A stretch of 64,000 bases of DNA from Naegleria gruberi. Its lineage: Eukaryota. The notes below the pieces were generated by a model. The model was not told the DNA's origin, searched no databases, and saw only the letters and a list, made by a program, of their open reading frames with translations. The translations under genes and the position numbers were made by a program. Shown here piece by piece: positions 20,249-25,081 of the stretch (its first letter is position 1; each line of letters opens with the position of its first letter). The DNA lies in assembly GCA_000004985.1 (NCBI GenBank), contig GG738868.1; one strand, written 5' to 3'.

Positions 20249-20260
20249 ATTTCCCGCCAA
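20249..20260. promoter_or_regulatory. E2F-like element ATTTCCCGCCAA upstream of large membrane protein gene
   Basis: Fits E2F consensus TTTSSCGC. About 110 bp upstream of ATG 20364. Confidence 0.3.
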
Positions 20261-20363: not shown

Positions 20364-23300
20364 ATGGAAAATAATATCCTTGATCCACAGAGAATAAGTG
20401 TAAATACTGAAAGGGTTGAAATTGTTATTCCCGAAAATATGTCGTCCCCAAGAGTTGAGTATCAACAACAACCACAACAAGATGTTTACATTACAACTAC
20501 TACTACAACTGAGCAGATATTTCAACAATTACCAGGTCAGGATGTAATGTTAAATCATTTTGTAAATTTGGAGGAAAATATCAAGATGGAGAATGACAAG
20601 AAGGGAGATTCGAATAAGAAGAAAAAGAAAGATAGTGGAAGTGATAAATCAGATAGTGAAAATAGCAGTAATGTAGATCCAGCCCTGAAAAAATTAAAAA
20701 AGAAGAAAAAACTCAAAAAGAAGGCAGTTAAATGCTTTGGTAAGGCTGTTGATTTTTTGGATTCAGTTGGAGAAAGTGTTGATGGGCCAGTAAGTTTAAT
20801 CTTATGAGTATTTTTCATTATGACACCTGTTAGGGATTAAGAAAGAAGACATTTATTGGAGCTATGGCAACAACTGTAATGAGGATAGTTGTTGTCATTC
20901 TAATTGCATACAAATTATACTTATTGATTATAGATCAACGTACTCAAACTACTGGAAATATTTTAGCATTGAACTATTTCAGAACAACCGATACAAAATA
21001 TATGGACATTCCAACTTTACAATTGAGTATTAGGAAAAATATTACATTTTATGAAAGGAGGGAATATGGTCCTTCTCTTCAAAGAATTGATATTTACGAT
21101 AATTTTGGTTATGAGAAGGTGTTTTCATCTCGTAGAAAAGCTGAGGATTCATCTTCTGTAGTTCCAGTTACCAAATCAATTAATGGAAAGGCCACTGTTA
21201 AATTGAATAGTTTTAGTCCTGCCCTCACTCCTCCTTTTACATCTGTGCAAATTGTAAGAGGTGCTAATGCATCACAGAGTGTGTTCACAACCAAGCAACA
21301 AAGTTTGAATATGTTATCATCAAAAGTATCAGATCCTTTGAAGATTTTATATTTAGTGAATGGTGTATTTGATTCTGGTGATTCAGTATTTTATAATAAT
21401 ACTGTTCATTTGTACTTGAGATTTGTTGATGACATGTCTCATATTAAACCATGTCAGATTCAAATTGGTTTATTGAATAGTGGTGTTTTGGATCTGATCA
21501 GTACGGTTGGTGTAGATGGACAAACATATATTAAGAAAGAATATCAATCCCATGCTGAAACCTATTTTGTGACTCAAAATTCTACTTGGTTAGTTCCAAT
21601 AACAAGTTATGAAGGTACTGGAACTACGAGTGAGATTTCATCTGATGGTATTAATTATAATATGATTTACTTGAATTCTAAATTTAACACTCAACAGTTA
21701 TATGAATTCATGTCAAGAACAAGTATTGGTGGGGCTAGTATTGATGTGGCCAAACGATATTCAGAAAAGGGAATGACACCATCATCTTTTCTAGAATGGT
21801 CCTTCCTGATTAGCTATGTCAATAACTTTATCTACACTGAAAATACTATTCAGTGTGATCAATACGAATCCGATGTTACAGATCTAACAACTTTGTATTC
21901 AAATCCATCCAAAAATTTAAAGGAATGGATATTCAATGTTGATATTCAAATCATTGCGGATATGATAGTTGATACTTCTGATTTTTTCTATGCCCAAGTA
22001 CCTAGCACATTTAGTTTTGAATCTAATAGCTTTAATTTGATAATTTTTGGTGTAACTGGTTTGTCTGAAATTGTGCAAGTAACAAACATTGAATCTCCAA
22101 CAATCTCTGCTAATGGAGCTACAAAGAAATACCTTAAATTATTTGTCACAAGAACAAATCCAAAAAATTTCAAATCTGTAGAGTCACAAGGTTCAACCTT
22201 TGTCAATTCGGTTATCAATTACAAGAAGGTCAACTCACCCAATACACTTCCTCTGGAATGGGTGTTAAACGGTTTCTGGAATTGTCCATCCTCTAAATAT
22301 GGAGATAACTTTTGCGATTGTGAGTGTGGATTTTCAAACTCAACCCATACCTTTCGAGATGTAGATTGTGACAATTTGCTTCCAACTTTATTTTTTGGTA
22401 ATAACTTTGTTAATAATTTTATGAAAACATCCTGTGCTTCAAGTGGTAAATTCTGTTCTTCATCTGGTTCATGTATCAGTGCTCCTTATTTGAAAGCTAG
22501 CAAACCATGTTATTACAAAGCTTCATATCTTGGAGAAAAGCAAATCGTAGGATTTTTTGGAGCTCAGTCTGATTTCAAAGAGAGTCTTTGTTCTCAATGT
22601 CTTGGTGATACCTTCTACAATCAAGTGCCTAGTCTTTCCTTTAATAACAACAAGTACATGTGTCAATTGACTCCAAAGGGCTATCTATTTGGAAGAGATA
22701 TTTTCTCTGATCTAATGTCTGGAAAAGATTATCTGCAACCATACACAAGTGGACCAGACTTTTTAGCAACTAAATGCTTAAATATTCCTGTAAGAGTCTA
22801 TGTTGGTCGCCCAGTTTTCCCAACCATTCAAACAGGTAAATATTATGAGCTAAATATTGGAGATGAATCAAATGATCAATACGTTCAATCCATGTACTTT
22901 GTTAATTTAAATGCCACAAAAAGAACAATCAAAACTCTCAATTCTGATAAGGACCTAGTTGGTGAATCCAAGTTTGATATTCAAATTCTATGTCTCGCAG
23001 CAGAGGATAATTTTGAAGAAATCCAACCAATGACTGGGTTTGGTGTAGTTGCTTCATCTGTTTCTTCTTATTCCAATTACATTTTTGTAGAACCAAAGAG
23101 TATCACTAGCTCAGATCCGAATATTGATTTAAGTTTCATTGGTAGATTCCCAACCAGTGGAACTTTCAAAGTCCAATTCTATGCGGGTAGTTCGTATTCT
23201 GATGGATTGTATGATTCATACACGCAACAACCAATAATGCTAGATGTAGAAGGGGTTACCGATTTAAACGGTTTACAAATACTTCAATTAAGATCACCAC

Positions 23301-25081
23301 CTTCATTCTCCATTGGCCTTGCATTTGAATTGAAATCTTTCAATAATTTACAAAGAACAAATGTCACCATTCAACAATTTGCTATTGGTACTGATTTATC
23401 AGGAACTAATATTATTGAAATGGTTGCAAAATATAAGGCAGATCCAGTTACTTATGCTCAAAGAAGACCAAGAATGCTGATTAGACCTTCTGTGAGTGAT
23501 TACAGTTATACGCAATACGTGCAAATAGATAATGTTATAATCACTAATACCTTGCCTCTAACTTATGAGATTCTTTTTGCTCAACCAGTCACATCTGATT
23601 TTGATGAGGGTGCCTTTGTGGAGTGCATAAACGACATGTCAGTTGGAACAGTGTTGATACCACTTACATTATCAAGTTCCTATGCAAGACAAGCTTATGC
23701 TCCAGCTCAATCATTTGAAAATGTTGGTATTCCTACACCTGATTCATTCAACATCGAATACTCCATGTTTGTTGTTCCTGACAAAAAGCATTTCCCAAAC
23801 TCTGATATGGATGATACATTTGAACAAGTACAAAATAGTCTCTCTGATACAGTTCTCAACTTGTGTCCTCGTGCTTATTCATACGAAAAGACCAGTATTC
23901 TCCAAAGCTCAGATGTTTGGACAAATTTTACTCTCAACCCCACCAGAGGTTATCAAATTAAAAACTGTACACTTCAGGTGTGGACAAGTAGTATGGTGAA
24001 TAAGCATTGTGTAGATGCTAGCAAGTCTACTAAGAACAAGTATAATGATAATTGTATCAAAGAAATGCCACCTTCTCAATCTTTGATTTATAACCATGTG
24101 ATTCAATTGAACAACAAATGGCAAAACTATTCTGTAACATCAGCATCAGACGCCTCTACAGGTGGTGCAACTCGTCCTGAATATGAATATAATTTCAAAC
24201 ATATTTACCATTTCCAACATGATAATTATGCTGATGAAACAGATTCCAAGTTTGCCAGTGAATCCCCAACTAGTGGTGATAAAACTGAAGATGGAACCAA
24301 TTATTTCTTCAATGGTAAACTGAATTATATTGGAAAATCCTTCAATCAATATGTACCGGCCAATAATCCAATTCTAGATATGGAAGCAACCATTGATTTA
24401 TCAGATTTCTTTGCTAAAGATGTTCTAGCAAATTCCAATGAATTAACAGCCAATTATGTGTTTAACTTCCTAGCAGAAAGTGGAACTTGGAGAGGGATTA
24501 AAACAAAAACTGAGAAAGATGTTAATGCATTTGGAAGATCCATTTTCAATGCAGTTAATATTAGATGGGATTTTTCATCGATGGAAAAGGGATCGCTCAA
24601 CAACAAGTTAACACTCACTCCAGGTAGTCAATACAATCTATTTGCTACCCTCAAAGTAACAACAGTATATTCTAGTGGAGTATTTGGAAATGCAGATATA
24701 ACCAATGTTCAAGTATTTGTTCAGTCAACCTCTGTAACTCATTCAGTTTTAGATTATTTGAATAGAAACAAATGCATTTTGAATTATGTTATTCAAATTG
24801 ATATGGCACAAAGTTATCAGGTGAAATTGTCTTCCGACTATACATTTCTGAGCTTCTTCAGTGATGTTGGTGCTGCATTAGGAGTAATGTCATTAGGAGT
24901 CATTGTTGTTGAATTGTGGCAATCATACATTTCACAACCTGAAATGTTTTTACATGAAGCAATTAAAGAAGAAAAGAAACTTCGTAAAAAGAAAGCTAAA
25001 GGATCTGTTGCTCCTGATATCATGGTTGGTGAAAATCTAAATGCCTCCAATTTCGTAAATAATCTAGCCTCACTCAACTAG
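20364..25081 (+). CDS. Large orphan membrane protein (about 1540 aa), two predicted TM segments and a Cys-rich extracellular module; 2 exons (20364..20789, 20834..25081)
   Basis: Exon 1 encodes a hydrophilic K/S-rich N-terminus. It splices at GTAAGT...CTGTTAG, in frame with the predicted second exon. The TM segment FIGAMATTVMRIVVVILIAYKLYLLII precedes an ectodomain of more than 1300 aa containing the Cys cluster WNCPSSKYGDNFCDCECGF...CASSGKFCSSSGSCIS...CSQCLGD. The C-terminal TM segment GAALGVMSLGVIVVELW is followed by a basic tail KEEKKLRKKKAKG. Confidence 0.6.

Follow-up and report, generated by a model that had tools for sequence, protein, structure and literature searches.

What does a giant protein that matches no named sequence family do in Naegleria? 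We addressed this question for one gene in a stretch of 64,000 nucleotides of Naegleria DNA, analysed at its full length and called the window below. The original prediction described the product as an orphan surface protein with a cytoplasmic N-terminus, a huge ectodomain and clustered cysteines, and saw in it a likeness to cell-adhesion or gamete-fusion proteins.

Gene structure and membrane topology

On re-checking the sequence, we found the predicted coordinates and anatomy of the gene to be correct. The features of the gene are as follows.

20250-20260, + strand: E2F-like motif TTTCCCGCCAA, 104 nt upstream of the ATG
20364-20789, + strand: exon 1 (426 nt, 142 codons), cytoplasmic N-terminal region, aa 1-142; aa 1 to ~105 are little conserved and are followed by a Lys-rich box (aa ~107-120, nt 20682-20723), after which the conserved pre-TM1 motif begins
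20790-20833, + strand: intron of 44 nt, GTAAGT...TTAG
20834-25081, + strand: exon 2, aa 143-1557 and the stop codon TAG at 25079-25081

Splicing of the two exons yields a product of 1557 aa. Without splicing, exon 1 runs into a TGA at 20805-20807, and the exon-2 frame is shut immediately upstream by a TAG at 20831-20833. The residues GLRKKTFIGA (20834-20863) lie 5' of the first ATG of exon 2, at 20864, and can be coding only if the intron is removed, because the frame is closed by that TAG. Both this segment and the motif across the junction (GESVDGP/GLRKK) are kept in all four heterolobosean orthologues of our alignment. In the N. lovaniensis orthologue an intron of 48 nt occupies the same site with a displacement of 1 nt, and the orthologue of Willaertia magna lacks an intron at the junction, with an open reading frame that is continuous from aa 43 to aa 1484. 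Conservation across the exon junction thus confirms the splice: the gene is real, and its upstream exon is joined in frame through the 44-nt GTAAGT...AG intron, as had been proposed. No paralogues were found within the window. Neighbouring genes differ among the window, N. lovaniensis and W. magna, and synteny gave no functional hint.

An E2F-like promoter site had also been reported. The window has six copies of the motif TTTSSCGC where 0.68 would be expected, all of them in intergenic DNA, and one copy does lie upstream of this gene. The DNA upstream of the N. lovaniensis and W. magna orthologues yielded no such site, and we therefore rejected it as a conserved regulatory feature of the gene.

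Hydropathy identified two transmembrane (TM) segments separated by a loop of ~1305 aa, which makes up ~80% of the protein. Basic residues flank the TM pair on both its N- and C-terminal sides. This supports the topology that had been predicted, with the N-terminus inside, a TM helix, a huge ectodomain, a second TM helix and a basic tail. The layout is common to the full-length (long) family members. The protein is organised as follows.

20757-20851, + strand: cytosolic pre-TM1 motif LDxxGESVDGPGLRKKTF, aa 132-148, split by the intron
20852-20932, + strand: TM1, aa ~149-175, Kyte-Doolittle maximum 2.48; long family members have a TM segment at the equivalent position
20933-21838, + strand: N-module, aa ~176-477, strands straight after TM1, conserved in distant relatives
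22259-22702, + strand: Cys-rich module, aa ~618-765, with the motif W.C....Y.DG.CDC.CG..D.DC at aa 624-654 (nt 22277-22369)
22703-23632, + strand: middle part of the ectodomain, aa ~766-1075, which is conserved among Heterolobosea but faint or lacking in distant members; the 1008-aa family member P0007 does not have it
23645-24847, + strand: C-module, aa ~1080-1480, conserved more widely than any other part and ending with two long beta-hairpins that run into TM2
24848-24922, + strand: TM2, aa ~1481-1505, with a small-residue ladder and a WQ motif (FFSDVGAALGVMSLGVIVVELWQ)
24923-25078, + strand: basic cytoplasmic tail, aa 1506-1557 (KEEKKLRKKKAK...)

The pre-TM1 motif is kept even in remote family members, as LD..G.....GP..R.KT..GA, and the N-module carries the motifs DIPTLQLSI, NITFYE, PSLQRIDI and VHLYLRF...KPCQIQIGL. 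TM2 is the best-conserved helix. Its ladder of G, A and S is evident from the column statistics (G1488 79%, A/S/G1489 97%, G/A1492 89%, G/A1497 99%, W/Y1504 68% and Q1505 66%). Comparison of the protein with itself by BLASTP and hhalign revealed no internal repeats.

The loop contains 22 of the 23 cysteines, 13 of them in aa 626-790, and 13 N-glycosylation sequons. Across the four heterolobosean orthologues 21 cysteines are invariant, and the cysteine cluster that had been noted is conserved. By eye, and at the level of the pattern only, the family motif W.C....Y.DG.CDC.CG..DPDC is LNR-like, the LNR pattern being GDG.CD..CN...C..DGGDC. However, the family motif has five cysteines and LNR six, and the CG..D.DC spacing in Naegleria is ~9 residues longer and departs from the LNR-type motif. 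The Pfam Notch model (PF00066) was not matched at E ≤ 10 by the Cys-rich fragments of four orthologues, and LNR membership has no support from Pfam.

A protein family in at least five eukaryotic lineages

We found three orthologues, in N. lovaniensis (63% identity), N. gruberi (NAEGRDRAFT_63931, 52%) and W. magna (42%). An exhaustive profile search retrieved 123 proteins at E ≤ 1e-3, 52 of them at E ≤ 1e-10, and a word-indexed homology search with a 4-sequence profile added no further members. The label "orphan" is wrong, because the three orthologues and 123 family members exist. Three collinear conserved modules were matched in distant members. The family occurs in Heterolobosea, Metamonada (Paratrimastix, Kipferlia), CRuMs (Rigifila, Mantamonas), Glaucophyta and Alveolata, and so spans at least five major eukaryotic lineages; Cyanophora, Vitrella and Amoebophrya are also among the named sources. 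No animal relatives appeared in any of our searches, and the closest animal proteins were matched by fold only. The family, made up of giant two-pass membrane proteins, is unannotated, and the locus encodes its single-copy Naegleria member.

The statement that no named family is recognisable held up. In Pfam, nothing rose above noise for the whole protein, for exon 1, for the Cys-rich and TM2 fragments or for 17 distant members, and no Pfam domain was detected in the window protein or in any of the 17 distant members scanned. Searches of PDB sequences with the protein and with three profiles returned no match, and the family profile matched no chain at E ≤ 10. A literature search under the orthologue identifiers found no paper.

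Predicted fold and comparison with two-helix channels

We used AlphaFold2 to model the family member P0007, which is 28% identical to the window protein and lacks TM1 and the middle region, from an alignment of 124 sequences. The model has a pLDDT of 72 and a pTM of 0.71. Strands equivalent to the post-TM1 N-module reach pLDDT 90-95 and the C-module 79-97; taken together, the post-TM1 strands, the pre-TM2 hairpins and TM2 lie at ~80-97. With four sequences, aa 143-1342 of the window protein itself gave a pLDDT of 33. When the P0007 model was compared with the PDB using Foldseek, the best 50 matches consisted of PAC/ASOR/TMEM206 structures at ranks 1-20 (best E = 2.6e-5, probability 1.00) and of P2X or ASIC1 structures at ranks 21-50. 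The extracellular core and TM2 of this predicted model have the PAC/TMEM206 fold. For the membrane-proximal core of the family, the prediction is a fold resembling that of PAC and ASIC/ENaC, which are trimeric ion channels with two helices per subunit.

We compared the family with these channels at the level of sequence. The Pfam models TMEM206, ASC and P2X were not matched by the whole protein, the TM2 fragments or the distant members. In particular, ASC (PF00858) was not matched by the whole protein at E ≤ 1, by fragments of four orthologues covering pre-TM2 and TM2 at E ≤ 10 or by the 17 distant members; among PDB chains, the family profile retrieved none of ASIC or ENaC at E ≤ 10. Profile alignment with hhalign gave no meaningful match to human PAC, the sequence of which was checked against 7jna_A. 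Against human ASIC1a the sole match was TM2 on TM2 (P = 0.012, probability 3.6%), which alone is not significant; it aligns the start of TM2 in the family (FFSDVGAALG) with that in ASIC (LLGDIGGQMG). By eye on the alignments, the DEG/ENaC signatures are absent (pre-TM1 HG, post-TM1 FPxxTxC and the TM2 G/S-x-S filter). At these places the family has DGPG before TM1, D(I/V)PT(L/I)Q after it, and in TM2 the G/A/S ladder with no GxS at the position aligned to ASIC. At the level of sequence, membership in PAC or DEG/ENaC is not supported. Similarity of structure without similarity of sequence has a precedent in PAC and ASIC themselves (PMC8809534).

PAC shares with the family two TM helices, both ends in the cytosol, and an extracellular core that is rich in beta-structure and runs on into the TM helices. 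It differs in its sequence, to which the window protein family shows no similarity, and in size, with ~350 aa against the 1557 aa of the window protein, which has an inserted Cys-rich module and further domains. The pore of PAC carries a lysine, instead of which TM2 of the window protein has the acidic residues D1486 and E1502. The PAC structures among the matches listed are all from vertebrates, whereas the present family was found in protists. The comparison with the DEG/ENaC/ASIC superfamily, in which we counted FaNaC, PDPNaC1 and BRTNaC1, is similar. The window protein, like the long members, has the two TM helices, cytosolic termini and large extracellular loop of these channels, together with conserved segments directly after TM1 and directly before TM2, a collinear beta-beta-TM2 arrangement and a Cys-rich insertion in the ectodomain, but its ectodomain is three to four times larger. 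P2X receptors are likewise trimeric two-TM channels with a beta-rich ectodomain. DEG/ENaC/ASIC channels are usually regarded as essentially an animal invention. Only a few patchy cases have been reported beyond animals, the known non-animal Deg/ENaC genes being those of a few heterokonts and Tunicaraptor (PMC10507113).

Proposed function and alternative readings

We tentatively favour a giant PAC/ASIC-like channel or ionotropic receptor, a reading that we put close to an even chance and in which ion conduction itself is inferred. In the predicted fold, strands leaving TM1 join those entering TM2 in a single beta-sheet core that runs on into the TM helices, an architecture known from PAC/TMEM206 and DEG/ENaC/ASIC, which are trimeric two-TM channels. 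In an assembly of three subunits, TM2 would pack round a central pore with its face of small residues (G/A/S at 1488, 1489, 1492, 1495 and 1497). The ectodomain of ~1300 aa, disulfide-rich and glycosylatable, would be placed so that the N-module, the Cys-rich module and the lineage-specific middle part could sense an extracellular or luminal cue. The signal may then pass via the palm-like core to a putative gate, as in an ionotropic receptor or sensory channel. D1486 at the outer end of TM2 and E1502 at its inner end would favour cations, not anions as in PAC.

The same core might instead serve only as an anchor and oligomerisation scaffold, without a pore, for an extracellular platform that binds prey, substrate or mate. 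We consider such a non-conducting receptor or adhesin rather unlikely, although the ectodomain share of the protein, the conserved Cys-rich module and the sequons would all suit it, as would beta-sandwich domains resembling GPR180, SID1 and GOLD-type domains and the lack of the selectivity-filter motif of known channels. Known adhesion domains went undetected by Pfam in the window protein and in the distant members. Conservation in the family peaks at the pre-TM2 hairpins and TM2, not in the distal ectodomain, and the cytosolic pre-TM1 motif is conserved across supergroups, a pattern that fits a gating or pore apparatus better than a passive anchor.

Two other readings start from topology or from the ectodomain. 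A two-pass protein of the early secretory pathway like Erv41/Erv46 (ERGIC2/3), with a luminal beta-sandwich that binds cargo, would share the N-in/C-in topology and the Lys-rich cytosolic tails. We regard it as improbable, since the window protein is four times larger, its tail ends without a KKxx-type signal, the ERGIC_N and COPIIcoated_ERV Pfam models were unmatched, and Erv41 is missing from the best 50 Foldseek matches, solely PAC, P2X and ASIC. Membership in that group, which is marked by its profiles, a luminal twisted beta-sandwich and terminal sorting signals, is not supported. The likeness to gamete-fusion or cell-adhesion proteins of the HAP2/GCS1, Sib or teneurin type that was originally proposed now seems very improbable. 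The ectodomain is indeed large and contains cysteines, and the family is present in many sexual or flagellate protists. However, HAP2 crosses the membrane only once, as a type I protein, and carries a signal peptide, whereas the family has two TM helices and both ends inside. The profile searches that had been suggested (HAP2/GCS1, teneurin) gave no Pfam match, nor did other adhesion families; no class II fusogen is among the PDB and viral fold matches listed. With neither the type I topology, the HAP2-GCS1 domain nor the class II fusogen fold found, the HAP2 idea was rejected on topology and fold. CatSper-beta also has two TM helices and a large loop; an auxiliary subunit of that kind was rejected, having no Pfam match and no place among the fold matches listed.

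On the channel reading, a broader and more speculative proposal, to which we give well under an even chance, is that the trimeric two-TM channel architecture has an ancient branch, so far unrecognised, which this family represents and which may go back to the last eukaryotic common ancestor. PAC and DEG/ENaC/ASIC would then be short specialised offshoots of it or convergent relatives, and in protists the family would act as giant ionotropic receptors, with ectodomains of ~1300 aa gating a pore lined by TM2. Even without ion conduction, a family that has no Pfam model is now defined and delimited, and it has three conserved modules. If the core architecture is the same, the search for the deep origin of the PAC/ASIC-type channel design would gain a concrete candidate in this family, along with genes open to expression and recording. 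For Naegleria, including its pathogenic species, the protein would then be a large, conserved, surface-exposed and single-copy candidate sensor.

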